This document shows positions 20,624 to 64,000 of a stretch of DNA of 64,000 nt, in pieces; position 1 is the first letter of the stretch; each line of letters begins with the position of its first letter. A program made the position numbers and the translations under genes. The notes beneath the pieces are model-generated. The model saw only the letters and a list, made by a program, of their open reading frames with translations, was not told where the DNA came from and searched no databases. This stretch comes from an uncultured Actinomycetes bacterium (lineage in GTDB: Bacteria > Actinomycetota > Thermoleophilia > UBA2241): NCBI GenBank assembly GCA_963725665.1, contig CAVRZA010000001.1, forward strand, positions 448,001-512,000, in the 5' to 3' direction.

Positions 20624-20699
20624 GCCCTCGTAGCTCAGTGGATAGAGCACAGGTTTCCTAAACCTGGTGTCGTAGGTTCGATTCCTACCGGGGGCACCA
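20624..20699 (+). tRNA. tRNA-Arg(CCT)
   Basis: Full cloverleaf: GCCCTCG/CGGGGGC acceptor, CAGGT-TTCCTAA-ACCTG anticodon arm, GTAGG-TTCGATT-CCTAC T arm, encoded CCA. Confidence 0.97.
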
Positions 20700-20946
20700 G
20701 TTTTCCCCTGCATATGGCGATTTCGCCTTCCTGCTCGAGGCCTCATTCTTGGCCGAATCGGCAAGATTGCCGACATTTTGCCGACGAGACGCACGGCCAC
20801 AGCAGGCTACTGCAGGGCACGGGGCAGTATTGAAGGGCGCCGCGACGGAGTGAGAGCTCGTCTGGTTCACTACGGACATGGGTCGACTGAAGCGTGCGCC
20901 CGTCAAGGCGGCGCAACTTTGAGAGGGTCGTAGCCGTTCGCGGAGC

Positions 20947-21789
20947 CTACGAGGCCCGATCCTCCCGGACTCGCGCGCGCTGTACCTGCCGCGACCGCTC
21001 GTGAGCCCCCTGCCCCCGTCGCAGCAGGATGGCGGCCGGCACGACGGCGATGAGCACCCCCAGCGCCACGAGCTGGGCCTCGCGCAGCCCGAGGAAGAGG
21101 ATGACGTTGACGCGCTCGAAGGAGATGAAGAAGCGCCCCAGGGAGTAGAGCCCCAGATAGAGCAGGAAGGCCATGCCGTCGGTCTTCAGCCGCGGCATGG
21201 CCCAGAGCAGGATGGCGATCACAACCAGCAACCAGAGCTGCTCGTAGACCGGCGTCGGCTGCGTGGGGACACCGAGCAGGTTCGCCGGCAGCAGCGCATG
21301 CGGGTTCTTATAGACGAACCCCCAAGGGAGCTTCGTGGCGTAGCCCCAGGTGTCGCCGTTGATGATGTTGGCGCACTTGCCGATCAGCTGCCCGACTGGG
21401 ATGGCCAGCGCCAAGGCATCGAGCACGCGCAGGAAGGGCAGCTTCTTCCAGCGGCAGTAGATGAAGACCGCTAGAACGCCGCCACTGATGACGCCGTAGA
21501 TGGCCAGGCCGATGAGCTGCAGCGTCCAGAGCTGCCCCGGGTGGTGCCAGTAGAAGCCCAAGTTGTCGAGGATGTGGAAGAGCCGCGCCCCGGCGATGCC
21601 AAGCGGGATGGCAAGGAGCAGCATCCCGTAGACGTGGTCGGGGTCGATGCCACGCCGCCGCAGCTGGCGCGCAAAGACGTAGGCGCCGACGAGCACGGCG
21701 ATGGCCATGATGACGCCGTACCAGCGCACGGCGAACGGCCCCAGGTGGAAGAGGATGGGGTCGATGTTGATCGTGATGGAGCCGGTCAC
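20947..21789 (-). CDS. lgt: Prolipoprotein diacylglyceryl transferase
   Basis: IDPILFHLGPFAVRWYG, GARLFH and QPTPVYE; signature somewhat diverged (GKCANIINGD). Confidence 0.85.
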   Translation of the reverse strand: MTGSITINIDPILFHLGPFAVRWYGVIMAIAVLVGAYVFARQLRRRGIDPDHVYGMLLLAIPLGIAGARLFHILDNLGFYWHHPGQLWTLQLIGLAIYGVISGGVLAVFIYCRWKKLPFLRVLDALALAIPVGQLIGKCANIINGDTWGYATKLPWGFVYKNPHALLPANLLGVPTQPTPVYEQLWLLVVIAILLWAMPRLKTDGMAFLLYLGLYSLGRFFISFERVNVILFLGLREAQLVALGVLIAVVPAAILLRRGQGAHERSRQVQRARVREDRAS

Positions 21790-21838
21790 CGGGCAGTCGC
21801 CTCGAGCACTTCTTCCCCCCGACAGGTTTGGCTATTCC

Positions 21839-21857
21839 GAAAATGGTTATCAGTTTC
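21839..21857. promoter_or_regulatory. Putative Zur/Fur box
   Basis: AT-rich imperfect palindrome GAAAATG-GTTAT-CAGTTTC between divergent lgt and znuA, with a Fur-family gene in the operon. Confidence 0.55.
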
Positions 21858-21860
21858 AGC

Positions 21861-22784
21861 GTGGTTGCCAACCTGTCACGTCTACTCCATCGCCCTGTGC
21901 CCGGCGCGCTCGCCCTGTCGGCTCTCCTTGCGCTGCTTCTCTCCGCCTGCGGCAGCGGCACCTCGACAGCGAGCGGCGGCGGCAAGGTGAACGTCGTGGC
22001 CGCCGAGAACTTCTGGGGCAACATCGCCGCGCAGATCGGCGGCGGCCACGTCCAGGTGACCTCGATCATCTCCGATCCCAGCGCCGACCCCCACCTCTAT
22101 GCCTCCAACGCCGCCAACGCCGCCGCCGTGGCTCGTGCCCAACTCGTGATCGACAGCGGCGCCGGCTACGACACCTTCATGAACGATCTTCTGAGCGCCT
22201 CGGGCGCCCATCCCGCGGTCGTCTCGGCGCAAGCGGTTCTCAAGGTAAGCGGCGCCGACGCCAACCCCCATCTCTGGTACGACATCCCGCGGGTGCCCGC
22301 CGTCGCCGCCGCCATCGAGCACGCGCTGGCCCGTATCGACCCGGCCAACAAGGCCGCCTTCGAAGCCAACCTCGCCAAGTTCGATCGCTCGTTGGCCCCT
22401 GTGAAGGCGGTCATCGCAAAGATCAAGGGCAAGTACGGCGGCGCACCGGTCGCCTACACGGAACGCGTGCCCGGCTACCTGCTCGCCGACGCGGGGCTTA
22501 CGGTGGCCTCGCCGCCGGGCTTCGCCAGTGCCATCGAGAACGGCAACGAACCCGCCCCCGCCGACGTGCAGGCGATGAACACCCTGCTCAGCGGGCACAA
22601 GGTGCGTCTCCTTCTCTACAACGAACAGGCGGTGAGCGCGGTCACCCAGCGCGTCCGCTCGCTGGCGCAGCAGAACGGCATCCCCGTGGTCGGCGTCAGC
22701 GAGACCCTGCCGCCCTCCGATGCGAGCTACCAGGCGTGGCAGCTGCGCCAGGCGCAGGAGATCCTGCGCGCGCTGGGCGGCTAG
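21861..22784 (+). CDS. Zn/Mn ABC transporter substrate-binding lipoprotein (ZnuA-like)
   Basis: Lipobox LLSAC, DPHLY and NPHLWYD; start approximate. Confidence 0.9.
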   Translation: MVANLSRLLHRPVPGALALSALLALLLSACGSGTSTASGGGKVNVVAAENFWGNIAAQIGGGHVQVTSIISDPSADPHLYASNAANAAAVARAQLVIDSGAGYDTFMNDLLSASGAHPAVVSAQAVLKVSGADANPHLWYDIPRVPAVAAAIEHALARIDPANKAAFEANLAKFDRSLAPVKAVIAKIKGKYGGAPVAYTERVPGYLLADAGLTVASPPGFASAIENGNEPAPADVQAMNTLLSGHKVRLLLYNEQAVSAVTQRVRSLAQQNGIPVVGVSETLPPSDASYQAWQLRQAQEILRALGG

Positions 22785-22808
22785 CGTCGTGGCGCGGGAC
22801 GGGAAGCT

Positions 22809-23637
22809 GTGCGGAGAACGGAGGTCCTTCTGCGCCTACGTGGCGCGACGTGGCCTTCGGCGCGCGCACACTCTGGCAGGGCCTCACGCTGGAGGTCCGC
22901 CGGGGCGAGTTCCTGGCCGTGCTGGGACCGAACGGCTCGGGCAAGACGACGCTCCTGCGCGTCCTTTTGGGGCTGCAGCCCCTGGCCGCCGGAACGGTCG
23001 AGATCGCCGGACAGCCTCCCCATCGCGGCGACCCCCGCGTCGGCTACGTGCCCCAGCAGCGCGCCTTCGACCGCGACCTCCCCGTGCGGGGGCGTGATCT
23101 CGTTCGCTTGGGCCTCGACGGACATCGCGCGGGCTGCCCCTTCGGCGCAGAAGCGTGCGAGCGCGCGTCGATGCGGCGATCTGGCTGCGGTCGGCGCGGC
23201 AGACTACGCCAACGCCCCCATCGGCCGGCTCTCGGGCGGCGAGCAGCAACGACTGCGCATCGCCCAGGCGCTGTTGGGAGATCCGCTGGCGCTGCTCTGC
23301 GACGAGCCGCTGCTCTCGCTCGACCTCGCTCACCAGCAGGCGATGACGGCGCTCCTCGACCAGCGGCGGCGCGCGCCGGTACGGCCATCGTCTTCGTGAC
23401 GCACGAGATCAACCCCATCCTGCCCTACGCCGATCGCGTGCTCTACCTCGTGGGCGGCCGCTGGGCGGTGGGCACGCCCGAGGAGGTCCTCACGAGCGCG
23501 CGCTTGAGCGCCCTCTACGGCGCCCCCGTCGAGGTCGTTCGCCTGGGGGACGCATCCTGGTGGCGGCGGCGGACGAGAGCGACTACACCGAGCCCGAGGG
23601 CCACACCCACCACCTCGAGCAAGGGCGCATCACGTGA
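22809..23637 (+). pseudogene. Metal ABC transporter ATPase (ZnuC-like), several frameshifts
   Basis: GPNGSGKT, LSGGEQQR, LLCDEP and VTHEINP fall in different frames. Confidence 0.85.
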
Positions 23638-24509
23638 GCCTGGGCTCCTACCTGCAGCTGCCGTTCGCACAGCACGCCCTGCTCGCGGGCGCCCTGGTGG
23701 CGGTCACCTGCGGCCTCATCGGACCCTTCGTCATCACGCGCCGCATGGCCTTCGCCGTGCACGGCGCCAGCGAGCTCGCCTTCACCGGCGCCGCGGCGGG
23801 GCTCCTGGTCGCCGGCGACGCCGTCGCCGGCGCGCTCTGCGGCGCCGCCGTGGTCGCCGTCCTCATCGGCGTCCTCGGCGTGCGCGAGCACGAGCGCGAC
23901 TCGGCCATCGGGGTGGTGCTCGCCGCCGGCCTGGGCCTCGGCGTTTTGCTCTTAAGCTACTACCACGGCTTCGCCACGGCGGCCACCAACATCCTCTTCG
24001 GCGACATCTTCGGCGTCAGCAATCACCAGCTCGTCCTGCTGCTGGCGATCGGCATCGCCGTGGTCGTCGTCATGGCGGTCATCTACCGGCCGCTGCTCTT
24101 CGCCTCGGTCGATCCCGAGGTGGCCGTGGCGCGCGGCGTGCCCGTGCGCCTGCTGGGGCTGGTGTTTCTCTTCGTCTTGGCCTTCACCGTCACCGAGGCG
24201 GCCCAGGTCGTCGGCACGCTGCTCGTCCTGAGCCTGGCCATCACCCCCGCCGCTTCAGCACAACGTTTGGCGACGAGCCCCTTCGCCGTGTTCGGCCTGT
24301 CGATCGGCTTCGCCTTGATCGCCGCCGACGGCGGCATTCTCGCCAGCCTGCAGAGCAGCACCGTCAAGCCGAGCGTCTTTGTGACCGGCATCAGCTTCGG
24401 TATCTACGTGCTCGCGCGCCTTCTCGGCCCCCGTCTCAGGGGACAGCGGCGGGTGGTACCATCGGCAGTGGAAGGAAGGGAGACTCATGGACAGCAAGCA
24501 ATCTCCTGA
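23634..24509 (+). CDS. Metal ABC transporter permease (ZnuB-like)
   Basis: RRMAFAVHGASE, ILFGDI and DPEVAVARGVP. Confidence 0.9.
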   Translation: MSLGSYLQLPFAQHALLAGALVAVTCGLIGPFVITRRMAFAVHGASELAFTGAAAGLLVAGDAVAGALCGAAVVAVLIGVLGVREHERDSAIGVVLAAGLGLGVLLLSYYHGFATAATNILFGDIFGVSNHQLVLLLAIGIAVVVVMAVIYRPLLFASVDPEVAVARGVPVRLLGLVFLFVLAFTVTEAAQVVGTLLVLSLAITPAASAQRLATSPFAVFGLSIGFALIAADGGILASLQSSTVKPSVFVTGISFGIYVLARLLGPRLRGQRRVVPSAVEGRETHGQQAIS

Positions 24510-24957
24510 TCAAAGCCGAGCAAGGACGACCCGACAGGGCGAGGCCGTGCTGCGCACCGCCCAGTCATCGGAGCTCTTCCGCAGCGCGCAGGACATCCAC
24601 GCCGAGCTGCGCGCCGCCGGCGAGTCGGTCGGGCTGACGACCGTGTATCGTCATCTCCAGTCGCTGGCGGATGACGGTGTCCTTGACACCCTGCGGACGG
24701 GCGAAGGCGAGCTCCTCTACCGCTGCTGCCGTATGGACGAGCATCACCACCATCTGGTCTGCGAGAGCTGCGGCCGAACGACCGAGATCGAGGGCGCCGA
24801 CATCGAGCGCTGGGTCGAGAAGGCAGCGGGCAAGCACGGCTACACGAGCACGAGTCACACCCTCGAGATCTTCGGCCTGTGCGCAGCCTGCCATGAGAAG
24901 GCAGTCGCAGAGGGAGCCTCTTTCCACGGTGTCGACTCTGGCAGGAACGCCAGGTAA
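24487..24957 (+). CDS. Fur-family regulator (Zur-like)
   Basis: GLTTVYRHL, HHHHLVCESCG and GLCAAC. Confidence 0.9.
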   Translation: MDSKQSPDQSRARTTRQGEAVLRTAQSSELFRSAQDIHAELRAAGESVGLTTVYRHLQSLADDGVLDTLRTGEGELLYRCCRMDEHHHHLVCESCGRTTEIEGADIERWVEKAAGKHGYTSTSHTLEIFGLCAACHEKAVAEGASFHGVDSGRNAR

Positions 24958-25073
24958 CACGCTCGGGTCGGACGGCCATCGCTCGGACCGCCAGCTCGAA
25001 GAGTGCCGATCTGGAGAGTTTCGTGCTGGGCCGTGAAGTGCAGCGCCGCCTCGAGTGCCTGGACCGACCTCGG

Positions 25074-25328
25074 CTACGTCCCGGCGAACACCAGCCCCGC
25101 GATCAGCGCCGCCGCCTCCTCCTGCATCGCCGGGATGGCGTGCGAGTAGGTGTCGAGAGTGATGGAGACGGTGGCGTGGCCGAGGCGCTCGGAGACGACC
25201 TTGGGGTGTACGCCGGCCTGCAGGGCGAGGGTGGCGTGCGTGTGGCGCAGGTCGTGCAGTTGGATGCTCGGCGCCGCCTTCTTGACTGCCTGCCCGAAGA
25301 AACGACTCGACGACCTCGGGGTGCGGGG
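25074..25328 (-). repeat. Integrase A 3' tail #1
   Basis: ..LHDLRHTHATLALQAGVHPKVVSERLGHATVSITLDTYSHAIPAMQEEAAALIAGLVFAGT*. Confidence 0.95.
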
Positions 25329-25447
25329 CCTGGCCGTCCTCGTGTGTGAAAGATCACCTCCTTCTTCGACGGCAGCGCTGCAACGGCATCAGCGGGTCGA
25401 CGGCGGGGGAAGCTTGTCGTACGAGATGCGATCAGAGGAGGACAAGC

Positions 25448-25801
25448 ATGCCACTGCAGAAGAAGAGTTTCGCTTCGCCGGATGAGGTGCGGCCCATGGC
25501 CGACAAGGGTCGCGTCGAGATCCTGCGGGTCGGCGATGGCGTCGTTGGCAAGGCTACGTTCGAGCCCGGTTGGCGCTGGTCGCAGCACGTCAAGCCGATC
25601 GCCGGCACCGACAGCTGCCAAGCGGCCCATCTCGGCTATGTCCTCTCCGGGCACCAGAAGGTAGTCATGGACGATGGCAGCGAACTCGAGTTCGGCCCCG
25701 GCGACGTGGTCGCCATCCCTCCCGGCCACGACGGCTGGGTCCTCGGTGACGAGCCCTGCGTCCTGCTGGACTTCGCCGGCATGGAACACTACGCGAAGTA
25801 G
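25448..25801 (+). CDS. Cupin-domain protein (copy 1)
   Basis: PGWRWSQHVKP, CQAAHLGY and IPPGHDGWV; GAGGAGG upstream. Confidence 0.85.
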   Translation: MPLQKKSFASPDEVRPMADKGRVEILRVGDGVVGKATFEPGWRWSQHVKPIAGTDSCQAAHLGYVLSGHQKVVMDDGSELEFGPGDVVAIPPGHDGWVLGDEPCVLLDFAGMEHYAK

Positions 25802-25825
25802 GGGATGGCGGAGACCAGCGCGTGA

Positions 25826-25905
25826 GCGAGGCGCTCTGAGACGACCTTGGGATGCACTCCCGCCTGCAGGGCGAGAGTGGGGTTCGTGTGGCGCAGGTCG
25901 TGCAG
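25826..25905 (-). repeat. Integrase A internal fragment #2
   Basis: LHDLRHTNPTLALQAGVHPKVVSERL; lacks the stop-proximal part. Confidence 0.85.
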
Positions 25906-26154
25906 GGCGGGGCGCACCTCCGCTAGCCGCTACCTCGCCGGCGTCGCGTCGGTAGCGTGTCGGCCGGATAGGGAGAGCTACTGCACGTCGCGCCACTCTT
26001 CAGTTTCCGACACGATTTGAAGACCTGTGACCGCGACCGACACACCATCACGGCTGGGGCAACGCCGAGAGAGGATTTCCTTAGTCCGGTTCTGGCAATC
26101 AATCGTGGAAGCGCCGCGGTCCAGACGGCGAGACGATAACGAAGGAGGCACGCC

Positions 26155-27876: not shown

Positions 27877-27942
27877 CTCTGCACGGTCCGGCGGGAAGAA
27901 ACGAGGAGTTGGCCAAGGTCCATGCTTGGCCAGGAGGGCGAC

Positions 27943-47723: not shown

Positions 47724-47936
47724 GCTTTTCCCTGCATATGGCGATTTCTCCTTCTCCTCGAAGTGCGCGTTTCTGGCCGAATCGGCAAGATTGCCGACAT
47801 TCTGCCGACGAGACTCCCGAGCACGAGCGGCCACAGTGGCACATCGGGCAACACGAGCCTGTTGGGCAGATCGCGATGAAGGGCATCTTCAGCGGACAGG
47901 GCCCACTCCGGTGCCCGCCACGAGAGGAGGCCGCAG

Positions 47937-48317
47937 GTGAGCGAGTCTGCGAACCGCGCGACACTCGAGGCGCTTGTCGCCGCGCTGAACGCCAGTGACC
48001 TTGAGGGACTCGACAAGGTGTTCACCGACGACGTCGTGATGGAATGGCCGCAGTCGGGCGAGCGCATTGTCGGAGGGCAGAACCGGCGCGAGATCTACAG
48101 CCGCTTCCCGTCTCTGCCGCACGTCACGCCGCGACGTATGACAGGAAGCGACGACCTCTGGGTGCTCGAGGCGAGCCTCGACTACGGAGACGGCGATCCT
48201 TTCCAGTGCGTCTTCATCTTCGAGATGCGCGACGGGCTCATCGCCAAGGAGACGGGCTACTGGTCGAAGCCGTTCCCGGCCCCCGACTGGCGGGCGCCCT
48301 GGGTCGAGCGTCTCTAG
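47937..48317 (+). CDS. SnoaL/NTF2-like protein
   Basis: EWPQSGERI and ETGYWSKPFPAPDWRAPWVE. Confidence 0.85.
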   Translation: MSESANRATLEALVAALNASDLEGLDKVFTDDVVMEWPQSGERIVGGQNRREIYSRFPSLPHVTPRRMTGSDDLWVLEASLDYGDGDPFQCVFIFEMRDGLIAKETGYWSKPFPAPDWRAPWVERL

Positions 48318-48385
48318 GGCTTCGCCGCGAACACCAGCCCCGCGATCAGTGCCGCCGCCTCTTCCTGCATCGCCGGGATGGCGTG
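48314..48385 (-). repeat. Integrase A 3' tail #8
   Basis: HAIPAMQEEAAALIAGLVFAAKP*; cut by the IS630-like end. Confidence 0.92.
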
Positions 48386-49193: not shown

Positions 49194-49628
49194 CTAGGCC
49201 ACGGATCGCTGCGATTCGGACTCTCGGCGACTCGCCTCCTCTGCCCTTCGCTTGAGGTATAACACAAGCCGAGGTAACTCGCCGTCCTTGGAGTCACAAA
49301 GGGTGTCGTAGAGCGCGGAGACGAGCGCCGGCGAGGCAGCGAGGGCGGTGATGAGGCGAGAGAGACGGTACTCGGCGAAGCAGGTCGGCTCGACGTGCAG
49401 GGCGCGGGCGATGCGCTCTATCGTCTCGGGGGCGGGGACCGAGCGCGTGCCTTTGGATAGGTGGTTGAGGTAGCCGGCCGAGAGCCCCGTCCGGTATGCG
49501 AGCTGACGGAAACTGTAGCCGCGCTCCTCCTTGAGCAGACTCAGTTCGCGGTGGAAGGGTCGACTAGCTGACCCCGGCAGGACCGCTGCGGAGCAAGCAG
49601 GTTCTAGGGGCACGGCAAATCTCGTCAT
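49194..49628 (-). CDS. XRE-family HTH regulator
   Basis: YSFRQLAYRTGLSAGYLNHLSKG..P..IARALHV. Confidence 0.8.
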   Translation of the reverse strand: MTRFAVPLEPACSAAVLPGSASRPFHRELSLLKEERGYSFRQLAYRTGLSAGYLNHLSKGTRSVPAPETIERIARALHVEPTCFAEYRLSRLITALAASPALVSALYDTLCDSKDGELPRLVLYLKRRAEEASRRESESQRSVA

Positions 49629-50194
49629 AGAGCGTCCTTCCGCTCGCGGGTTGCCCGGGTTTGCCGGATTTCGATGATGGCGGTAGCAGGGGAGAAGGCC
49701 TGCCTTGGCGGCCTACGGCTTCCACAGCCTGTAAACGGGCCGCGAGGAGCCGGTGACGATTCCGTAAAGTCTCGCAGGTGCCTGGAGGCGGCTCTCATGG
49801 GCTATCAGGGGCCGGTCGATGTCTCACAGTTATAGAACGTCGGTCGAGCCGCTTCCATAACACTCACCCCGGAGGAGGCACTTTGCGGCACGCTCGTTAC
49901 GTTCGCGTTAGGACGGGATGAGCAGGCAAGGAAGCGGGGAACCGCTCTAAACTGCGACCACGTCGCCGAGCACCGCGAGCTGCAGGGCTCACACGAGGGA
50001 TCCTCGCCGGCCGGCCACCGCTCGAAGGGGATAAGGGTGTTGAATCTCTAGGCGGTCCCCTCCAGACCTCGGCGCGCCCTGGCTTGAAATCGGTCGCAAA
50101 TTGGCGGTTCGCGTCCGAAATCCTAGCTGCATCGGTGTCGGAAGTCGGCCCAGGCGACTTTAGGCACAAGCCGGCAAGGTGGTGTTTCGGCGGA

Positions 50195-50325
50195 TCAAGC
50201 CTCCAATACCAGACCCGCAATCAGCGCCCCCGCCTCCTCCTGCATAGCCGGGATGGCGTGCGAGTAGGTGTCCAGGGTGATCGAGACGGTGGCATGTCCG
50301 AGGCGCTCTGAGACGACCTTGGGAT
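50195..50325 (-). repeat. Integrase A 3' tail #9
   Basis: PKVVSERLGHATVSITLDTYSHAIPAMQEEAGALIAGLVLEA*. Confidence 0.92.
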
Positions 50326-53877: not shown

Positions 53878-54237
53878 ATGATGGCCGACAGCGTGATCTT
53901 CATCGGCTGGTCAAACGCCGTTCGCGGCCGCGAGCAGGCCTCGGAGAAGGTCTTCAGGGAGGCGATGGAGTACTGGGGCCGGCTGCAGGCGGCGGGGGAG
54001 ATCGAAAGCGTCGATGCAGTGCTGCTGGATGCCCACGGCGGCGATCTCGGCGGCTTCTTCCTCCTCAAGGGCGAGCGCGAGAAGCTGGCGCGCGTCCAGG
54101 CGAGCGCGGAGATGGAGAAGCTGATGATTCGGGCGAACGTGATCGTCGACGATCTCGGCGCCGTGGGCGGCGTCACCGGCGAGGGCGTGATGCGGCGGCT
54201 GGCCATGTTCCTGGAGGCCTCGGGCAGCCTTCTCTAG
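53878..54237 (+). CDS. Hypothetical protein
   Basis: AAGGAG before ATG; IFIGWSNAVRGRE..HGGDLGGFFLLKG; no family named with confidence. Confidence 0.7.
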   Translation: MMADSVIFIGWSNAVRGREQASEKVFREAMEYWGRLQAAGEIESVDAVLLDAHGGDLGGFFLLKGEREKLARVQASAEMEKLMIRANVIVDDLGAVGGVTGEGVMRRLAMFLEASGSLL

Positions 54238-54396
54238 AGGCGGACGGACGTGGGGCGCTGACGCGCTCCACGCCCTATCTTTCTCGTAGCGCCCCGGAGG
54301 ACAGTAGTCCCCACGGGGTGAGCGGCGTGGGCAGCCATGACGTGGACTCGCTCATGAAGTGGCGTGGCCCCCGACGCTGCCTGTCACGACAGGTGT

Positions 54397-54496
54397 CTAC
54401 GCCTCAGCGAACACCAGCCCCGCAATCAGCGCCGCCGCCTCCTCCTGCAGCGCCGGGATGGCGTGCCAGTAGGTGTCGAGCGTGATCGAGACGGTG
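54397..54496 (-). repeat. Integrase A 3' tail #13
   Basis: TVSITLDTYWHAIPALQEEAAALIAGLVFAEA*. Confidence 0.93.
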
Positions 54497-54547
54497 CCGC
54501 CGGGTACATCCCAAAGGGACGCAAGACCGATCAGGAAGGGACCCTCA

Positions 54548-56133: not shown

Positions 56134-59100
56134 CTAGCCGCGGCGCCTCCACCACCGACGGCGCTCCTCAGAGGCAACTGGCCCGCGATCGGGTTCTTCT
56201 CTCGACTCGATTGGCCTGGCTACTGGATGCGGATCCAGCGACTCACCCATCGGCTCCAGGATGTACACGGTTCCACTTGTGTCCCCACAGCAGATGCGCG
56301 TCCCTTGCGGACTGTAATCGCAGCAAGACACAAATCCGAGGCACGGCAACATCGCAACACACTCCATGTTCTGGGCATCCCAGAGCGTGAGGGTGCTGCT
56401 GTCCCATGAGCCAGAGGCGATGCGGCTGCCGTCCGGGGAGTAGGCGACAGCGGTCACCGAGCCCGTATGGCCCCTGAAGGTGGCGAGCTCCACGCCATTG
56501 GCGGCGTCCCAGACCTTGAGCGTCCCGTCGCCTGAGCCGGAGACGATGCGGGTGCCGTCCGGGGAGTAGGCCACGGCCCGCACCGAGTCATCGTGGCCGC
56601 TGAAGGTGGCGAGCTCCGCGCCGCTGGCGGCGTCCCAGACCCTGAGTGTCCCGTCACTTGAGCCGGAGACGATCCGGGTGCCGTCCGGGCAGTAGGCAAC
56701 CGTGTTCACCCCCTCCGTGTGCCCGCTGAAGGTGGCGAGCTCCGCGCCGCTGGCGGCGTCCCAGACTCTGAGCGTGTGGTCGTCTGAGCCGGAGGCGATG
56801 CGGCTGCCGTCCGGAGAGTACGCGACGGCGAATACATAGCCGGTGTGGCCGGTGAGGGTGAGAAGCTCCGCGCCGCTGGCGGCATCCCAGACCTTGGCTG
56901 TGTTGTCGTACGCGCAGCCATCGACGATGCGGCTGCCGTCCGGGGAGTAGGCGACGGCCTCCACATAGCCTGTGCCGCTGAGGGTGAGGAGCTCCGCGCC
57001 GCTGACGGCGTCCCACACCTTGAGCGTGCAGTCGCGTGAACCGGAGACGATTCGGCTGCCGTCCCGGGAGCAGGCGACGGCCCGCACCCAGTCCGTGTGA
57101 CCGCTGAGGGCGGTGAGCTCCGCATCGCCGGCGGGGTCCCAGACCTTAAGGGTGCCGTCGCCTGAGCCGGAGACGATGCGGGTCCCGTCCGGGGAGAAGG
57201 CGACGGCAGACACCGAGTACGTGTGCCCGCTGAGGGTGGCGAGCTCCGCGCCATTGGCCGCGTCCCAGACCCTGACGGTGTAGTCGTCTGAGCCAGAGGC
57301 GATGCAGGTGCCGTCCGGGGAGTAAGCCACGGTGAGCACCGGTTTCGTGTGCCCGCTGAGGGTGGCGAGCTCCGCGCCGCTGACGGCGTCCCAGATCTTG
57401 AGGGTGTTGTCCCAGGAGCCGGAGGCGATGCGGCTGCCGTCCGGGGAGTAGGCGACGGCGGTCACGTGATCCGTGTGGCCGCTGAGCGCGGCGAGCTCCG
57501 TGCCGGCGGCGGCGTCCCAGACCTTAAGGGTGCTGTCGCCTGAGGCGGAGGCGATGCGGCTGCCGTCCGGGGAGTAGGCGACCGCCTGAACGTGGCTAGT
57601 GTGGCCAGTGAGGGCAGCGAGCTCCGCGCCGGTGTCAGCGTGCCACACTTTCAGAGTGTTGTCGCCTGAGCCGGAGACGATGCGGTTGCCGTCCGGGGAG
57701 TAGGCGACGGCATACACCGAGTCCGTGTGGCCGCTGAGGGTGAGAAGCTCCGCGCCGCTGACGGCGTCCCAGATCTTGAGAGTGTTGTCGCCTGAGCCGG
57801 AGACGATGCGGCTGCCGTCCGGGGAGTAGGCGACGGCCTGAACGTGGCCAGTGTGGCCAGTGAGGGTGGCGAGCTCCGCGCCGCTGACGGCGTCCCACAC
57901 CTTAAGCGTGTTGTCCTCTGAGCCGGAGAGGAAGCGGGTGCCTGAGCCGGAGACGATGCGGCTGCCGTCCGGGGAGTAGGCGACCGCCCCCACCAAGCCC
58001 GTGTGGCCGGCGAGGACGCGTATCAGCGCCCCCGACTCGCGAAGTCGAGTCAGCAAGTGCAGCCACAGTCCGGCGCCGGGCTTGCTGCGTTCCTCGAGCT
58101 CGGGTGCAAGAACCCCGGAGACGACCCCCCCGTTCTCCGGCCCGTCGACCCACTGCAGCCGGTTGTACATCTGCTGCCAGAGCAGATCGGGGCCCGGGGT
58201 CAGGTTGTGCGCCTCCCGACCGAGTATCTTCGCGAACGCCTCGAGCACGAGGCGCTGATCGGACCGTGCCGTCATTGGGTCGCCCACGAGCGCCTGCGCG
58301 GCCGGGAAGGCTGCCAGCGCCCGGTCGTAGTCGTCGATCAGCGCCAGCACGCCGTTGTAGACGCCGACGTCCTCGCCCTCGGCGCCGGCGCTCGTCACGA
58401 CGGCGACGCGCTTCGCTTTCTGTTCGAGGTAGGTGAAGTCGGTGAGCGTGGCAGAGAGGTCATCCCAGCGCTCGGCCCGGGTGAGGTGGTAGGGCAGCTC
58501 GGCGAGCGCGTGCGCGCTGCCTTTCCACTCGCGCGCGCCCGCGTCCTTGCCGCGTGCCAGCCGTTGCATCACGTTCGCGAGCACGTCGTGCAATTGCGCT
58601 GACCGTCCGTCGACGTAGCGCTTCTGTGCCGCGTCGGCAAGCTCCTTGTGGAAGAACGACAGCAGCGACGCCCCTTCGGAGGCCCGCGGACTCAGGTACG
58701 GCGCCAGATCGAAGTGCAGCCGCGACCACACGACGACCGGCAGCTGCCGCAGCGGCATCTCCCATTCGGCGCCGGCCCTGAACTCCGCCCACGTCTCCTC
58801 GTCGGCGGCGAGCGCATCGAGGAGCTCGTCCTCGGAGAGGCCCAGCCGCTCGTAGGCGCAGGCGAGGAAGCCGAGCGCGTGGCCCACCAGCTCGCCCCCG
58901 TGCTCGGTTTCGAGCCGCTTGTAGAGGTCGCCGATGATGGCGGGCTCGTCTGCGCCGATCCGGACCTCCTCGAGTGCGGAGGGCCACAGACGCGCCTCCT
59001 CGAAGGCGAGGCGCAGGTAGAGCGGTGAGCCGCGGGCGCCAAAGCGTCCGAGGATTCCCTCGCGTTGCGGGGGCCTGAGCGTGCGGCCGCTATTCTGTAG

Positions 59101-60639
59101 CCAGGAGTCCAGCAGGCTCTCGCCCTCGTCCGGTGGCATTCCCTGAAGCTCCAGCACGAGGTTCTCGGGCAGGCGGTCTGCCAGGCTCTCGAGGAGGGGA
59201 CCGGGCCTGGTCGCGGTGACCAGACGGACTTTAGCGGGCAGCTCGGAGGGCAGCCAGGACAGGTTCGTGCCCTCGCCCCCAACCAGTTGATCGAGCGAGT
59301 CCAGGAAGACGATGAGCGGCCGCTCCGCCGATGCGAGCTCGAGTCGCTTGGGCAGCTCGCGCTGGAGATCCTGCAGGGTAGATGGGACCGGCTCGCTCGA
59401 TCCGTAGGCCTCACCGATCTCGCCGCACAGGTCCTGCAGCAGGGAGCGAGGATCGGCCGAAGCCGACGTGACGCCGATAAAGCGCGTCACGATCACCGCG
59501 TCGGAATGCTTCTCGCCGGCGTCGGTAGCCGCGCGTGCCATGAGCGCCGACTTGCCGAGACCTCCGGCGGCGAACACGCAGAGGGGGTGGTCGCTCCCGC
59601 TGGCCAGGTAGCGAGCGATGGCGTCGAGGTAGCGCGCCCGCCCGATGAACCCATCGGCGTGCTCCGCCGCGAACGCGCCGTGCGCCGCGCGCTCCTGGTC
59701 AAGATGCGAGTAGGCGCCGAGCCGCTCGATCTCGGCGTCGATGACGCGCGTGAGCGACGAGAGCATGTCCGCGCAGAGCTGGTCGATGTGAGCGGTGCTC
59801 GCAGCGGCGCCGGTCCACTGGGCCTGGTACTCGAAGGCGTTGTCGCCCAGCCCCCGGTCCTGGCGAGACGCGCCGTCGCCAAGCCGCTCGCGCAGGCGGG
59901 TCTTGAGGTCTTCGAGCAGCGCCCCAGCCTCTTTGTCAGGGGTCCCGTCCTCGTGGAAGTCGCGGTAGTTCGCGGCCGGGGGCCACAGCTCCGGGTCATC
60001 GCAGGGCGGCACCCGGTCCGGTAGGCCGCTGAGGTCGCGCAGGAAACAGAAGACATGCTCGTCGGCGTACTCGGCCGCAAAGGCGCCCTTTAGGATCTCC
60101 TGTTCGGTCGCCGAGAGGGTGTACTTGGCGAGTGCGGCGTCCGGGAGACCGGCGCCGCGTGCCGCCTCAGCGAGCGCCTCGCGAAGGGCGTCCGCATCGT
60201 AGGCCGCTGCACCCTCGCGGCGCGGCTCAAGCACGTACTCCGGCGGGACCGCATTGTCGTCGCGGTAGTAGGCAGCTTCTGGGGCCGCCAAGGCCGCCGG
60301 GGCGAGTAGCGCCTTGAGGGTCTCGAACTCCTCGGCGCCGACGACTTCGGGCAGCGGGCGCCAACCGTAGCGGTCGCCGAGAAGCACGACGAAGTTCGGC
60401 CTGGGCGAGACCTCCTGGCAGCGCGCGACTTCCGAAAGGCAGATGCGCATCGTACGCTGACCGGCCGAGGCCTCTTCCCCGATGCCCCAGCGCAGATCGA
60501 CGGCCTGGAAGGCATAGCCCTTGGCCGCACAGTGTGCGCGCAGCTCCGGGAAGACCTTCTCCTGCAGCGCGTCGCGCTCCGCCTTGAGATCGCGGAAGGT
60601 GGAGGAGACGAAGACACGGAATACCCGAGTCCCGAGCAT
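56134..60639 (-). CDS. DUF4062 + NACHT/AAA NTPase + WD40-repeat protein (NLR/STAND-like)
   Basis: RVFVSSTFRDLKAER, VDLRWG, Walker A AGGLGKS, Walker B LIVFLDSLD, 13 near-identical plus 1 degenerate WD40 repeats. Confidence 0.9.
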   Translation of the reverse strand: MLGTRVFRVFVSSTFRDLKAERDALQEKVFPELRAHCAAKGYAFQAVDLRWGIGEEASAGQRTMRICLSEVARCQEVSPRPNFVVLLGDRYGWRPLPEVVGAEEFETLKALLAPAALAAPEAAYYRDDNAVPPEYVLEPRREGAAAYDADALREALAEAARGAGLPDAALAKYTLSATEQEILKGAFAAEYADEHVFCFLRDLSGLPDRVPPCDDPELWPPAANYRDFHEDGTPDKEAGALLEDLKTRLRERLGDGASRQDRGLGDNAFEYQAQWTGAAASTAHIDQLCADMLSSLTRVIDAEIERLGAYSHLDQERAAHGAFAAEHADGFIGRARYLDAIARYLASGSDHPLCVFAAGGLGKSALMARAATDAGEKHSDAVIVTRFIGVTSASADPRSLLQDLCGEIGEAYGSSEPVPSTLQDLQRELPKRLELASAERPLIVFLDSLDQLVGGEGTNLSWLPSELPAKVRLVTATRPGPLLESLADRLPENLVLELQGMPPDEGESLLDSWLQNSGRTLRPPQREGILGRFGARGSPLYLRLAFEEARLWPSALEEVRIGADEPAIIGDLYKRLETEHGGELVGHALGFLACAYERLGLSEDELLDALAADEETWAEFRAGAEWEMPLRQLPVVVWSRLHFDLAPYLSPRASEGASLLSFFHKELADAAQKRYVDGRSAQLHDVLANVMQRLARGKDAGAREWKGSAHALAELPYHLTRAERWDDLSATLTDFTYLEQKAKRVAVVTSAGAEGEDVGVYNGVLALIDDYDRALAAFPAAQALVGDPMTARSDQRLVLEAFAKILGREAHNLTPGPDLLWQQMYNRLQWVDGPENGGVVSGVLAPELEERSKPGAGLWLHLLTRLRESGALIRVLAGHTGLVGAVAYSPDGSRIVSGSGTRFLSGSEDNTLKVWDAVSGAELATLTGHTGHVQAVAYSPDGSRIVSGSGDNTLKIWDAVSGAELLTLSGHTDSVYAVAYSPDGNRIVSGSGDNTLKVWHADTGAELAALTGHTSHVQAVAYSPDGSRIASASGDSTLKVWDAAAGTELAALSGHTDHVTAVAYSPDGSRIASGSWDNTLKIWDAVSGAELATLSGHTKPVLTVAYSPDGTCIASGSDDYTVRVWDAANGAELATLSGHTYSVSAVAFSPDGTRIVSGSGDGTLKVWDPAGDAELTALSGHTDWVRAVACSRDGSRIVSGSRDCTLKVWDAVSGAELLTLSGTGYVEAVAYSPDGSRIVDGCAYDNTAKVWDAASGAELLTLTGHTGYVFAVAYSPDGSRIASGSDDHTLRVWDAASGAELATFSGHTEGVNTVAYCPDGTRIVSGSSDGTLRVWDAASGAELATFSGHDDSVRAVAYSPDGTRIVSGSGDGTLKVWDAANGVELATFRGHTGSVTAVAYSPDGSRIASGSWDSSTLTLWDAQNMECVAMLPCLGFVSCCDYSPQGTRICCGDTSGTVYILEPMGESLDPHPVARPIESREEPDRGPVASEERRRWWRRRG

Positions 60640-60738
60640 GATCAGCCTCCTTGGCCGTTCAGCGCATGGTTTCGCGCTGCAAGAGGCACCCTACTACGAA
60701 CGAGGCGGCGCGACTGCGCACGTCGAGTGTCCTGTCCG

Positions 60739-60808
60739 CTACCTTTCCGCGAAGAGCAGCCCCGCGATCAGCGCCGCCTCCTCCTGCATCGCCGGGATGG
60801 CGTGCGAG
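60739..60808 (-). repeat. Integrase A 3' tail #15
   Basis: SHAIPAMQEEAALIAGLLFAER*. Confidence 0.9.
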
Positions 60809-60957
60809 CGGCTGGTGACGGAGATCACAATGCTGCTGGAGGATCGCATCGCTCTTGAGCCAGTGCCCGTGCCCAGCGGCCTTGGGCGGGGCGGCGGGAT
60901 CCTTCGCCCGCCGCCGCCTTCGCACCTTCGGCCTGGCACTCGCTCCCCGGGTCGGTA

Positions 60958-61277
60958 TCAGGAGCCGGGCGGCCTGTAGTCGACCTGCTTCTTGGTCGCC
61001 GCGTCGATCTCCTCCGCCGTCAGCAGCACCGTCGTCGTCACGCTCACCGCCCCGGTGCTCGAGATAGACAGCGCGAGCGCTGCCGCCGTCACGTTGTCGG
61101 GGACACCCGCGATGGCGAACACGTCGTCCTCACCGAAGGCCCAGTAGATCGCTTCGAGCGAGCCCCGGCCTGCTTCATGAGCCGTTCCACTTCCTGGCGC
61201 CGGTTACTGCCGCCCACCTTGAGAAGGCCCTTCGTCCCCTGCGCTGTGTAGCTCACGCGCATCAAGTACTTCGCCAC
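60958..61277 (-). pseudogene. GYD-domain-like protein, frameshift near 61160
   Basis: AKYLMRVSYTAQG, then YWAFGEDD..TTVLLTAEEID..YRPPG in another frame. Confidence 0.75.
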
Positions 61278-61769
61278 AACCTCTCCTGTCGCGTCGTTGC
61301 GGAACGCTACCGCTTTCCCCGGCAAGTACTTGGGCAACCGTTGGGCGCGCGACAAGGCTCGACCGAGGACGGACGGTGGGTCGGCGCCGGGCCTCCCGCG
61401 CTCAGGGGCCCCCTCACCAGACAGGGATGGCCGATCGTGGGCACGACGCGTTGGCGGTGCACCCGCTGGCGACCGCCGCCGCCGTGATTCTGCAGCCTGC
61501 GCAGGTAGGGCAAGGGGGCTCTCGCCTCCGGTCTCTACCCGGGTCTTCATCGCCGACCTCGCCCTCTGCGGTGCTCCAACCCGTGCCGTAGCAGGTTCAT
61601 CCAGGGCGAGATGGGCTACGACGGGACAGCACGGGTATCTGCGCGGCACCCCAACGGTTCGATCTCCGGTCGAGGCGGAATACCACATCAGCAAGACGAC
61701 AAGGTTCGCAGCTCTGACCAAAGAGGTGTGGTACCCAGTGGGGCCCACTCAACAGGAGGGAGAACAATC

Positions 61770-62057
61770 ATGGCCTACGGCGTCGTGCATCATTTTCCGG
61801 GCGGCACCAGGGAGCAGTACGAGGCATCGATCGGCGCGGTTCACCCGGGCGAAGGTCTCTTGCCCGAGGGTCAGACCTTCCACGCTGCCGGCCCTTCCGC
61901 CGGCGGTTGGACGATCATGGCCGTGCACGACTCAAAGGAGAGCTGGGAGCGCTTCCGTGACGGCACCCTCCTTCCTCGCATGCAGCAGGGTATCGCGGGC
62001 GGGTTTGCGACGCCCCCCGAGGAGACGACCTTCGAGGTGTACAAGAGCATGCCGTAG
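61770..62057 (+). CDS. Small hypothetical protein (dimeric alpha/beta-barrel-like)
   Basis: AGGAGG upstream; FPGGTREQYEA..FHAAGP..HDSKESWERF. Confidence 0.7.
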   Translation: MAYGVVHHFPGGTREQYEASIGAVHPGEGLLPEGQTFHAAGPSAGGWTIMAVHDSKESWERFRDGTLLPRMQQGIAGGFATPPEETTFEVYKSMP

Positions 62058-62122
62058 AGGGGCCGGAGCGAGCCCGTTAGACCTGCAAGCAGATCGGCGT
62101 AGGCGACGAACGGGCGGGCAGA

Positions 62123-62438
62123 CTACGCTTCCGCGAACACGACTTCGCTTCCGGGAACACGAGCCCCGCGATCAGCGTTGCCTCCTCCTCCTCCTCCTCC
62201 TGCTGCTGCTGCATCGCCGGGATGGCGTGCGATTGGGTGTCGAGGGTGATCGAGACCGTGGCATGCCCCAGGCGCTCATTCTCACCTGTGACTCGACGAT
62301 CAGCGTTGCCCCCTCCTGCCGAGGCGCTCGGAGACGACCTTGGGATGCACGCCGGCCTGCAGGGCCAGGGTCGCGTGGGTGTGGCGCAAGTCGTGCAACC
62401 TGATCGTCGGTAGCATCCCCTTCTTGTCGGCTTGACGG
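62123..62438 (-). repeat. Integrase A 3' tail #16 (internally rearranged)
   Basis: VFAEA* end, duplicated VF segment, QQQQEEEEEE expansion, then a second piece with HDLRH. Confidence 0.9.
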
Positions 62439-62517
62439 ACCCCGCTTGCGGAACGGGGCGCTTCCTGCTCGCCGCCCACGACTGCGCCGCGATTCCGTTT
62501 GACGAATGCGACCGAGC

Positions 62518-62625
62518 CCACTGGCGCGCGAACATCAGCCCCGCGATCAGCGCCGCCGCCTCCTCCTGCATGGCCGGGATGGCGTGTGGAGTAGGTGTCG
62601 AGGGATGGCGATGCTGGCGTGCCGA
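62518..62625 (-). repeat. Integrase A 3' tail #17
   Basis: MQEEAAALIAGLMFARQ, with TGG at the usual stop position. Confidence 0.88.
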
Positions 62626-62732
62626 GACTCAATCTGAGGACGCAACGCCGGCTCGATGGCTACAATGGTCATGAGGTCGAAGCTTGGTCTCATACTACTT
62701 GCGCTGACCAGAGAGCCGATTGAAGGAGCCGC

Positions 62733-63809
62733 GTGACGCCCAGCACCGACGCCCTCGTGACGGCCTTCGGCCTGCCGGTCTTCCTGGTGCCGTGGGCCGA
62801 CCGCTTCCTCGAGCCACTCGACTTCGCCCTGGTCGAGGCGCTCGCCGCCGGCCCGCTGCCCGAGGCTGAGGTGCTGCGTCGCATTCCCGGCCTCACCGCC
62901 GTCGACCTGGCGCGCGCAGTGCGTCGGGGAGTAGCCGACCTGGCGGATGAAGGAGATCGGCTCGCCCTCGCCAGCTTTCATGCCCGCTTCGAGATCTGGG
63001 CGATGTTCGAGGGCTGGAAGGACGTCCCCGATGACGTGGCCGTGCAGCTCAACGAGTGGGAGCTTTCGTACTACGAGGCAGGCGTCGCCGCGGATCTGGG
63101 GATCGGGCCCGACGGAGGCATCAGCGCCGACCCCGGCTCCTCCAGGAACGCGGCCTACGCCTACATCTTGCTCAACGAGGCCGAGGACATCGTGCGCTCC
63201 GTGCCCCACGTCTACCAGTGGCCCTGCGACTGCCGCGCCATGTTCGGGCGCTGTCGCAAGCCGGTCAACGTGTGCTTGCGCTTCGACAACGACCGCGGGC
63301 TCGGCTGGGAGATCTCGGCCGAGCGCGCCGTGTCACTCCTGCGCGAGGCCGACCGTGCCGGGCTGATGCACACCGGCTTCGTCGGCTTGGGAGACGAGGC
63401 CGGCGAGATCTGCAACTGCTGCACCGACTGCTGCTTCCCGCATCAGGCGTCGCGGCGCCTCGGCATCGACGGCGAGTGGCCGGGGCGGCAGTACGTCGCT
63501 GCGGTGGACGCCGCCGCCTGCACGCTCTGCGGACGCTGCGCGAAGCGCTGCCCCTTCGAGGCGCTCACCTTGTCGCCGGAGCCGGGGTCCGAACGGGCTC
63601 CGCGGAGTGGCGCGACCGTGATGCCGGACGCGGAGACGGACGGCGCGGTCGTGGTCGCCGAGCCGGCGGCGCACACGGGCAAGCGGCAGGCCCGGGGGTC
63701 GCGCAGCCTGCTCTTCACCGCCGATCGCTGCCGCGGTTGCGGGCTGTGTGCGAGTGGCTGCCCGGAGAGCGCCATTGCGATGGCGCGGCGGCTGGCCGCC
63801 CTGGCATGA
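62733..63809 (+). CDS. 4Fe-4S cluster-binding protein
   Basis: CDCR, ICNCCTDCC, CTLCGRCAKRCP and CRGCGLCASGCP. Confidence 0.85.
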   Translation: MTPSTDALVTAFGLPVFLVPWADRFLEPLDFALVEALAAGPLPEAEVLRRIPGLTAVDLARAVRRGVADLADEGDRLALASFHARFEIWAMFEGWKDVPDDVAVQLNEWELSYYEAGVAADLGIGPDGGISADPGSSRNAAYAYILLNEAEDIVRSVPHVYQWPCDCRAMFGRCRKPVNVCLRFDNDRGLGWEISAERAVSLLREADRAGLMHTGFVGLGDEAGEICNCCTDCCFPHQASRRLGIDGEWPGRQYVAAVDAAACTLCGRCAKRCPFEALTLSPEPGSERAPRSGATVMPDAETDGAVVVAEPAAHTGKRQARGSRSLLFTADRCRGCGLCASGCPESAIAMARRLAALA

Positions 63810-63854
63810 GAAGGCCGATGCCGACATGCCTGCCGACCTGCGGGCACCGGTTGG

Positions 63855-63943
63855 CTACGTGGCGCTTAACACCAGCCCCGCGATCAACACCGCCGCCTCC
63901 TCCTGCAGCGCCGGGATGGCGTGCGAGTAGGTGTCGAGGGTGA
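63855..63943 (-). repeat. Integrase A 3' tail #18
   Basis: TLDTYSHAIPALQEEAAVLIAGLVLSAT*. Confidence 0.92.
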
Positions 63944-64000
63944 GGAACGTCGCAGGTGTAGGGAACGACTGCAGAGTCTATGTCCGCTTCTACGCCGAGT

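Follow-up and report, generated by a model that had tools for sequence, protein, structure and literature searches.

An array of integrase 3' ends beside a tRNA-Arg gene

The DNA analysed here is a stretch of 64,000 nt (the window, in which positions are marked w) from the genome of an uncultured Thermoleophilia bacterium (G000; 3.73 Mb in 12 contigs, 5% contamination), corresponding to positions 448001-512000 of its contig C1. Downstream of a tRNA-Arg gene, the window carries a series of 3'-terminal fragments of one tyrosine integrase gene, which we call stumps, with unrelated cargo genes between them. The original prediction on this DNA had counted 18 co-oriented integrase copies beside the tRNA, all but one with the stop-codon end and only one with the 5' half. 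A DNA profile of the integrase gene, made from 19 intact genes of relatives and used with nhmmer for piece calling, recovers 19 pieces from the window; they occupy 18 places and are confined to the minus strand. The only piece without the stop-codon end is w25811-25905, and the only copy with the 5' half, w30174-31416, is full length. A repeat finder returned a 103-nt family with 17 co-oriented window copies at the places named by the prediction, and the 72-nt core that it had given matched the window seven times at up to 3 mismatches, compared to none in 100 shuffles. ARAGORN identified the tRNA as tRNA-Arg(CCT), on the plus strand at w20624-20699. In all these respects the prediction was accurate. 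The array extends past the end of the window: it occupies 76 kb of the contig (C1 473080-549546), where 29 pieces lie on one strand, out of 40 matches to the integrase profile in the whole G000 genome. Twenty-six of the 29 reach the stop codon (two of these are full length), three are internal and none is 5'-only. The pieces in the window, called with nhmmer, are as follows.

w25080-25351, minus: integrase 3' stump, 272 nt (profile 969-1242); recent duplicate of w52427-52699
w25811-25905, minus: internal integrase fragment (profile 1063-1157), no stop end
w27798-27887, minus: integrase 3' stump, ~90 nt
w28894-28979, minus: integrase 3' stump, ~85 nt
w30174-31416, minus: full-length integrase (profile 2-1241) in two frames, one frameshift near GLRW/GDVDL
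w34861-35013, minus: integrase 3' stump, 152 nt
w35857-36320, minus: integrase 3' part, 466 nt (profile 775-1238); Pfam Phage_integrase
w48323-48392, minus: integrase 3' stump, 68 nt
w50200-50342, minus: integrase 3' stump, 138 nt; 98% duplicate of C1 526767-526909 plus flank
w51055-51163, minus: integrase 3' stump, 106 nt; ragged junction common to w55430 and C1 530334
w52427-52699, minus: integrase 3' stump, 274 nt
w53528-53707, minus: integrase 3' stump, 181 nt, one in-frame 3-nt deletion
w54404-54496, minus: integrase 3' stump, 92 nt
w55430-55531, minus: integrase 3' stump, 101 nt
w60745-60808, minus: integrase 3' stump, 65 nt
w62152-62439, minus: integrase 3' part in two pieces (w62152 and w62319), with an expanded triplet repeat, QQQQEEEEEEE
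w62528-62630, minus: integrase 3' stump, 107 nt
w63864-63951, minus: integrase 3' stump, 92 nt

The two edges of the stumps differ. On the stop side, homology among the array copies ceases within a few bases in every copy, and the edge opposite the stop is ragged, with stump lengths in the array of 60-466 nt. The lengths peak at 60-100 nt, with a median of about 92 nt in the loci of relatives. In a line-up of about 60 copies from many genomes the protein ends in GLVFA, followed by about two weakly conserved residues (consensus GK, i.e. FAGK before the stop) and a stop codon that is mostly TAG, and there is no conserved sequence past it. Since the family C-terminus is variable and nothing is conserved beyond the stop, the sharp edge is simply the end of the gene. 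The varied C-terminal residues that the prediction had read as marks of distinct alleles are real, but they lie in a loosely constrained C-terminus. One further peculiarity of the stumps is a GAG/GCG triplet run (QEEAAA), which has grown to QQQQEEEEEEE at w62152-62278; in another genome the same run encodes about ten Glu, with one Asp (L033 579-764; L-numbers denote loci of relatives carrying an integrase of the same family, and G-numbers genomes).

Attachment sites, intact elements and the assembly of the island

The features related to attachment sites in the window are the following.

w20624-20699, plus: tRNA-Arg(CCT), whose 3' 48 nt with ~19 nt downstream form the identity segment (O) of attL; ARAGORN
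w20700-20795, plus: P' arm with a CTGCAnATGG box and two GCCGACAT/GCCGAC arm-type repeats; cargo begins directly after it
w47560-47815, plus: attP-like internal junction (P arm, tRNA-Arg 3' half, P' arm); alignment, blastn
w55756-55993, plus: second attP-like internal junction (P arm, tRNA-Arg 3' half, P' arm); alignment, blastn
w63820-63850, plus: P' arm remnant (GCCGACAT..GCCGAC) in direct contact with the following stump's stop, an arrangement like that of an unloaded element; motif scan

By alignment and blastn, the 3' half of the tRNA-Arg is present in four copies in the island, at w20650, w47675, w55851 and w103970. At w47675 and w55851 the 3' 48 nt of the tRNA are repeated together with about 100 nt of downstream sequence, and are preceded by about 80 nt that the two share and that are absent at the true tRNA. 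This architecture, P arm, core and P' arm, is the one predicted for junctions between tandemly integrated elements. The fourth copy (w103892-104033) has the P arm and the core, with only about 19 nt of tRNA-downstream sequence and no P' arm. It is probably the distal end of the island, which would therefore measure about 83 kb (w20624 to ~104033; C1 468624-552033). Two genes of the left flank are also found upstream of the tRNA-Arg in L010; for the right flank, no homologues were found among the relatives' loci examined. The P' arm is conserved in three window copies and at the tRNA-Arg of L010, L019 and L007, with a variant form at tRNA-Cys, and the motif GCCGACAT-N1-6-GCCGAC turns up six times in the island, for whose size 0.4 occurrences would be expected. 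The insert is thus bounded by direct repeats of the 3' part of a tRNA, and the content at the same tRNA-Arg(CCT) differs between relatives, as is typical of tRNA-targeting islands: L007 has one integrase and two cargo open reading frames (ORFs), L010 has 1.1 kb with a partial integrase, and L019 has a stump array. The segment w47.8-55.8 kb is bounded by attachment sites and contains seven stumps (w48323 to w55430) and no full integrase, and L033 contains one such bounded unit with one long integrase and two stumps. Composite units with stumps in their cargo slot therefore exist, and they may move whole. Just upstream of the tRNA-Arg, a plus-strand ORF (w20400-20520) reads ...FSGLRVGEVAGLRWSDLDFDQG... 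and resembles the start of a tyrosine-recombinase catalytic domain; it has no Pfam match.

The integrase itself is a zinc-ribbon tyrosine recombinase of about 415 amino acids (aa), abundant in uncultured Thermoleophilia. In an intact relative of 429 aa (L007), a zinc ribbon at the N-terminus is accompanied by a SAM-like domain and a phage-integrase catalytic domain. The protein matches PHROG 1 (E 4e-75) and the Pfam families Phage_integrase and Phage_int_SAM_3; with PF00589, whose cut-off is 27.1 bits, the intact relative P0002 reaches 77 bits, and w35847-36458 and L001:1249-1707 reach 60 and 59 bits. Near the C-terminus, the translations contain HDLRHTHAT and LDTYSH, which we take to be the HxxR box and the nucleophile Tyr of tyrosine recombinases. 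Named integrases are distant: among the matches listed, the best identity is 34% for phages (Bacillus phages) and 38% for plasmids, for which the summary counts three further records at 60-80%. By contrast, 7939 of 8000 scored candidates in a metagenome protein set match the family, and the 119 listed below the top match are 72-80% identical. Genome records with the family are nearly all from uncultured Thermoleophilia/Actinomycetota of peat, wetland and soil. Stump DNA was detected in 23 of the 41 genomes searched (G000 included), with at least six matches in 8 other genomes of the family.

In the relatives, the layout of the element is constant (examples are L004, L007, L010, L019, L025, L042 and L050-L052): a tRNA-Arg(CCT) or tRNA-Cys(GCA) is followed by a P' arm of about 95 nt, by unrelated genes, and by the integrase stop, with the integrase reading toward the tRNA. 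The cargo occupies 0-7 kb between the P' arm and the stop. In L004 the element is unloaded, without any cargo, and its arm repeats end about 25 nt from the integrase stop, while L030 has a complete attP 360 nt past the integrase stop. In Logan contigs of public sequencing runs, the end of the P' arm (47814-47818) is fused directly to stump stops; the most plausible reading of these joints is that they come from other members of the community, whose copies are unloaded or intact. The layout, the unloaded L004 and the Logan joints together place the cargo slot in the short interval that separates the P' arm from the stop. In an element this small, it may be the only position at which added DNA does no damage.

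The stumps of the array derive from diverse coding sequences. Over profile positions 1100-1175, the mismatch to the family consensus at codon positions 1, 2 and 3 is 0.071, 0.050 and 0.236 in 24 array stumps, compared to 0.064, 0.030 and 0.258 in 39 full-length copies; over the last 60 nt the corresponding values are 0.047, 0.038 and 0.130 for stumps and 0.074, 0.058 and 0.174 for full-length copies. Stumps in other genomes have about 4-5 points more change at codon positions 1 and 2. The array stumps thus show the marks of genes whose divergence took place under purifying selection and which have decayed little since. Their mean pairwise identity over the last 63 nt is 0.893 (325 pairs), compared to an identity of 0.851 to foreign copies and of 82.4% among the foreign copies themselves. 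The third-position differences and the divergence of about 11% argue that the stumps descend from many distinct working alleles, and since adjacent stumps (0.891) are no more alike than the average, they were not produced by local amplification. The prediction that the copies are distinct alleles, and not one recent amplification, is supported on both counts. The pattern fits many separate arrivals from a diverse pool; a few units are recent copies.

Crossovers have occurred inside the stumps. Three recent duplications within the array show 97-100% identity on the ragged side, which falls to ordinary stump identity nearer the stop, and their breakpoints lie about 190, 25 and 0 nt before the stop. 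The first of these values belongs to the pair w25080-25351 and w52427-52699, the second to w50200 and C1 526767-526909. The variation among the three breakpoints points to homologous rather than site-specific exchange. Units made of a stump plus cargo, with unrelated DNA past the stop, are shared between genomes (L051/L045 and L019/L033); a third pair, L023/L020, consists of two contigs of one metagenome-assembled genome (MAG). The suggestion that the integrase tails serve as recombination handles can therefore be retained in the sense of passive homologous crossover points, as the three duplications attest; of a site-specific reaction at the stumps we saw no sign in these duplications.

Taken together, we consider it rather probable that the locus is a composite island of about 83 kb, built by repeated integration of minimal elements at tRNA-Arg(CCT) and followed by decay of their integrases to stumps. 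In the mechanism that we propose, the element would comprise an attachment site (P arm, tRNA 3' half and P' arm), the integrase of about 415 aa and cargo, the latter occupying the one permissive gap from the P' arm to the integrase stop and mostly transcribed toward the integrase. One family of such elements would have integrated repeatedly and site-specifically at the tRNA-Arg(CCT). After integration, the integrase bodies and most of the internal attachment sites would have been deleted, leaving cargo genes separated by integrase 3' stumps. Since the stumps are all homologous and co-oriented, they would then act as dispersed direct repeats, at which ordinary homologous recombination could duplicate, delete and reshuffle units. 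The original prediction had outlined a similar history, and the small elements, the cargo slot at the integrase stop, the repeated integration at the tRNA and the loss of the backbone all agree with the partial tRNA copies, the attP-like junctions, the relatives (including the unloaded element) and the third-codon-position pattern. Its expectation that the newest unit lies nearest the tRNA fared less well: the correlation of a decay proxy with distance is weak and non-significant (Spearman 0.35, p = 0.08).

If this account is true, one family of very small integrase elements would supply much of the flexible gene pool of these bacteria, and tens of small metabolic, transport and regulatory genes would be stacked at one tRNA. 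The array would be a readable record of about 25 separate acquisitions in one genome. The host lineage is uncultured, lives in soil and peat and has small genomes, and the layout recurs in several genera, the integrase genes numbering thousands in metagenomes.

Cargo genes and competing explanations

The cargo was examined in 90 ORFs of the island, picked by third-position GC rather than by a gene caller and annotated with Pfam. The genes are small and serve metabolism, transport and regulation; among them are Znu/Fur, cupins, a BBE oxidase, arginases, dehydrogenases, SnoaL-like proteins, glyoxalases, YCII, MFS, GNAT, Amt, a full sigma-70 and cold-shock proteins. These ORFs also included two transposase remnants, and their Pfam matches contained no replication, primase, helicase, polymerase or conjugation/mobilisation families. 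Cargo had been described as often transcribed toward the tails, and by hand count 33 of 47 Pfam-annotated non-mobile ORFs are indeed on the plus strand, convergent with the stumps; the other 14 read in the opposite direction. Two parts of the cargo are referred to below.

w20947-24957, mixed strands: tRNA-proximal cargo with Lgt (minus), ZnuA, ABC-3 permease and Fur (plus); Pfam
w47839-48321, plus: SnoaL-like cargo module, 91% identical to L011 13765-14249 of another genus

Some cargo stays with the integrase across genomes: w55091-55524 is shared with L026/L024, w83309-83973 with L047/L021, and w101131-101546 with L020. The cargo at w55091-55422, on the stop side of the w55430 stump, directly follows the stops of full-length integrases in L026 and L024. 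The Lgt gene (w20947-21789, minus) is an unexpected recurrent cargo, with homologues of 75-82% DNA identity beside family integrases in L023, L032 and L040. The SnoaL gene and its stump are convergent, and their frames share a palindromic CTAG that provides both stop codons (w48314-48320). Three other features of the island are conspicuous. A minus-strand ORF of 1501 aa at w56134-60639, rich in WD40 repeats and containing 12-13 tandem units of 126 nt, is the cargo right after the second attP-like junction. Two adjacent giant plus-strand ORFs (1115 and 1043 aa; w40776-47317), with DUF5122 beta-propeller, Ig-like/TIG and matrixin (M10) domains and internal repeats of 144-156 nt, lie within an 11-kb stretch free of stumps. 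Finally, a direct repeat of 506 nt that is not related to the integrase occurs twice in the island, 18.7 kb apart and at 99% identity (C1 517536-518039 and 536203-536708, equivalent to window positions 69536-70039 and 88203-88708).

Several observations weigh against repeated integration followed by decay as a complete account. In L025, L042, L051 and L052, a full-length integrase is separated from the tRNA by orphan stumps, which does not fit an order in which the newest element is next to the tRNA and most intact. The survival of the integrase is one-sided: 26 stop-reaching pieces stand against no 5'-only piece in the array, and 56 against 2 (plus 6 internal) in the loci of relatives, with edge cases left out. 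A motif scan revealed just 2-3 P' arm remnants without a tRNA half. Neutral deletion fails to predict such an asymmetry, because remnants of the far side (a piece of P' arm, or a 5' half with the attachment site) should be about as numerous as stumps. Short stumps are also scarce. A search with the 21-23-nt terminal motif, allowing up to 4 mismatches in 23 nt and therefore undercounting decayed short stumps, detected none of 21-45 nt in the array, 7 in the relatives' loci compared to 56 longer ones, and 1-2 elsewhere in G000; these counts partly reject the notion that the lower limit of about 60 nt is a mere limit of detection. The SnoaL module, whose homology to L011 runs from about 100 nt before its start to exactly its own stop codon, has no P' arm or stop-reaching stump in L011, where an internal integrase fragment lies about 150 nt upstream. 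Having crossed genera without a stop-reaching stump or arm, it indicates that some cargo travels another way. All five G000 integrases inspected, two in the array and three on contigs C2 and C6, have a frameshift or a stop. The frameshifts, including that of w30174-31416, may be assembly errors, and we do not conclude that these integrases are dead, since many loci in long-read MAGs show a frameshift or stop while those in short-read MAGs do not. Finally, the short Logan contigs contained no excision product and no array variant of the host strain.

The second full-length copy in the array, C1 513255-514476, is 87% identical to w30174-31416. Elsewhere in G000, an integrase remnant lies about 200 nt past a tRNA-Gly(TCC) (C8 58678-59446), and three integrase pieces with three partial tRNA-Cys copies are found in mirror orientation on C6 (238322-282596). 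Two copies near a contig end (C2 582106-586764) and a stump near a contig start (C3 6289-6578) may represent one island split by the contig ends.

Why the 3' end of the integrase survives while the rest of the element is lost, attachment arms included, is a sharp and testable question. We favour the reading that units with about 60 nt or more of stump could spread by homologous recombination. In its strong form this becomes an alternative to which we assign a low probability, namely that stumps are selected as portable homology handles: cargo lying between two stumps of about 60 nt or more would be copied by RecA-type recombination into other arrays of the family, within a cell or after DNA uptake, and units that keep a stump would spread by an integron-like but recombinase-independent exchange. 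The excess of 3' stumps over 5' halves and P' remnants would be expected from this, as would the crossovers inside stumps, the recurrence of stump-plus-cargo units with different neighbours in different genomes, and a soft lower limit of stump length near 50-60 nt; the range given for the minimal homology of RecA recombination includes this length. It would also account for a partial tRNA-Cys copy with Cys-type arm repeats inside the tRNA-Arg island (C1 540218-540300, window-equivalent 92218-92340; L002 8218-8340), within a 16-kb stump-free stretch with sigma-70, cold-shock and GGDEF/EAL genes. Such a remnant cannot result from integration at the Arg site and therefore needs another route. However, homogenisation is weak (the identity of 0.893 within the genome only modestly exceeds the foreign 0.851), decayed short stumps escape the search, and the shared units are three among about 80 stumps, one pair being within a single MAG. 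If stumps were indeed kept because they let cargo move by homologous recombination, this would amount to a simple cassette exchange without a dedicated recombinase. A more radical proposal, which we regard as quite improbable, takes the last ~60 nt of the integrase gene for a true recombination site, where the integrase, or a dedicated partner, would move cassettes of cargo plus stump in and out next to the integrase's own stop codon. It would mean that integron-like capture was invented independently in Actinomycetota, with coding sequence as the cassette site. The sharp stop-codon edge of all copies, the strict co-orientation, the retention of the terminal segment, the orphan stumps between a full-length integrase and the tRNA (L020, L022, L025, L026, L042, L051 and L052) and the unusual conservation of the amino acids past the catalytic Tyr (0.86-0.97) are in line with it. 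Against it stand the three duplications, which break at three different depths, the absence of a conserved half-site past the stop in the line-up, and the genuine attachment sites, with arm repeats, that these elements possess at another position.

Further tests bear on the likeness to integrons. Six single-strand DNA folds of five stumps gave z-scores of -0.41 to +0.99 against 200 shuffles each, i.e. no attC-like fold. A hairpin that coincides with the minimal stump (profile 1178-1239) and reaches -30 kcal/mol with the consensus sequence was considered and rejected: 86% of cells are paired, 14 cells are compensatory compared to 7-30 in slid controls, 37 of 500 shuffles reach the same pairing, and there is no excess covariation, wobble changes mostly breaking pairs. 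RNAalifold found no consensus structure in 104 sequences. A constraint at the DNA level was likewise dismissed, with the synonymous identity of the last 20 codons (0.65-0.70) inside the gene-wide range (0.43-0.80). The integrase scored 42.9 and 26.1 bits with the NCBIfam models of integron-type integrases, whose cut-offs are 265 and 435, and the cargo does not consist of promoterless one-direction cassettes, with 14 of 47 ORFs in the opposite direction and about 100 nt ahead of the SnoaL start conserved along with the module. Given the lack of an attC fold, of covariation and of special synonymous constraint, and the integrase scores below cut-off, the array is not an integron, and the label integron-like in the original prediction is acceptable as an analogy only. 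The idea that the stump is a secondary attachment site owing to its likeness to the tRNA (CCTAC...CACCAG; GTAGGTGTCGA versus GTAGGTTCGA) was dropped, because no tRNA end with a P' arm is found at the ragged ends and elements at tRNA-Cys have the same stump. That stumps are kept for the benefit of the cargo or the host, as a 3' untranslated or terminator region entered by convergent cargo transcripts or as a source of antisense RNA that would stabilise the array by acting against the integrase mRNA of incoming or resident elements, we find very unlikely: cargo stops do lie about 0-100 nt from stump stops, 33 of 47 ORFs converge on them and the terminal segment is retained, but no fold resembles a terminator more than shuffles do, and one third of the cargo points in the other direction. 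Least credible of all is an assembly artefact, in which repeats from many strains of a metagenome would have been chained into one contig. The 12-contig assembly with 5% contamination, the repeats about 90% alike and the integrase frameshifts typical of noisy reads might raise this suspicion, but Logan contigs from 4 runs of 3 studies bridge several single junctions of cargo and stump (among them 49508-50243, with 9 differences, and 48044-48377), and none of the records covers several units. A contig of run X1 (54051-54538, 14 differences) passes from cargo to cargo across the whole w54404 stump. Moreover, 8 further genomes of the family have similar arrays, in some cases (G003, G024) within a few large contigs, L019 has one at the same tRNA, and stumps of only 60-270 nt are far below the length of long reads.

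Comparison with known systems

Tandem accretion of integrative elements offers a first comparison. Integrative and conjugative, integrative and mobilizable, and cis-mobilizable elements (ICE, IME and CIME), and likewise the islands of Dehalococcoides, are said to accumulate several in tandem at one site, with internal att sites remaining and recombinase-less units still bounded by att sites. The segment w47.8-55.8 kb, bounded by attachment sites and without a full recombinase of its own, is comparable to such a unit. The present island differs in that no conjugation or mobilisation genes were seen among its scanned ORFs, and most of its units are separated by integrase stumps, not by att sites. 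In print, accretion of this kind is described for streptococcal ICE/IME/CIME and for the ssrA-specific islands of Dehalococcoides, as far as the available text of these sources goes (PMC5704250, PMC3146451).

Trapped elements that leave orphan C-terminal integrase fragments in the chromosome bring to mind a second system. A review on archaeal recombinases treats tandem integration, the exchange of modules through homologous recombination, and split integrases, including the "suicidal" integrases of the SSV (Sulfolobus spindle-shaped virus) type, in which attP lies inside the gene, so that integration splits it and each end carries one part, int(N) or int(C), next to a tRNA half (PMC8371274). 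The orphan C-terminal fragments are a likeness, within what that text covers. Unlike in the SSV case, the attachment site here lies outside the gene, there is no 5'-only piece in the array, and the stumps do not abut tRNA halves.

With integrons, the array shares its single direction, its many unrelated small genes, repeats of about 60-150 nt, an adjoining tyrosine recombinase, and differences in content between relatives. The repeat, however, is integrase coding sequence and not an imperfect palindrome, the cargo has its own upstream regions and reads in both directions, and crossovers occur at no fixed point.

A close counterpart is found in Prochlorococcus. Tycheposons are, in the available text of the preprint, cargo-bearing tyrosine-recombinase elements at tRNAs, where successive integrations at the same site push the older ones inward, and their islands contain fragmented integrases and extra, scattered partial tRNAs (bioRxiv 10.1101/2020.12.28.424599). 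The present island likewise has a tyrosine-recombinase element at a tRNA, flanking partial tRNAs and cargo. It differs in its Thermoleophilia host, in elements that appear to consist of integrase, attachment site and cargo only, with no replication or helicase module among the 90 ORFs scanned, and in remnants that are almost only 3' stumps, dozens of them in one orientation, with 4 partial tRNAs per 83 kb. The original prediction, which knew of no named system with this layout, thus overstated the novelty: islands at tRNA genes that combine tandem elements with integrase fragments and partial tRNAs scattered among them have already been published, as the same preprint text attests (bioRxiv 10.1101/2020.12.28.424599). 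For arrays of integrase 3' stumps and for this integrase family, no description was found in the literature searched, the scope of which excluded subscription journals. The locus is not a new integron; it is a regular and very large case of the known process of tRNA-island building, carried out by a new and abundant family of minimal integrase elements.

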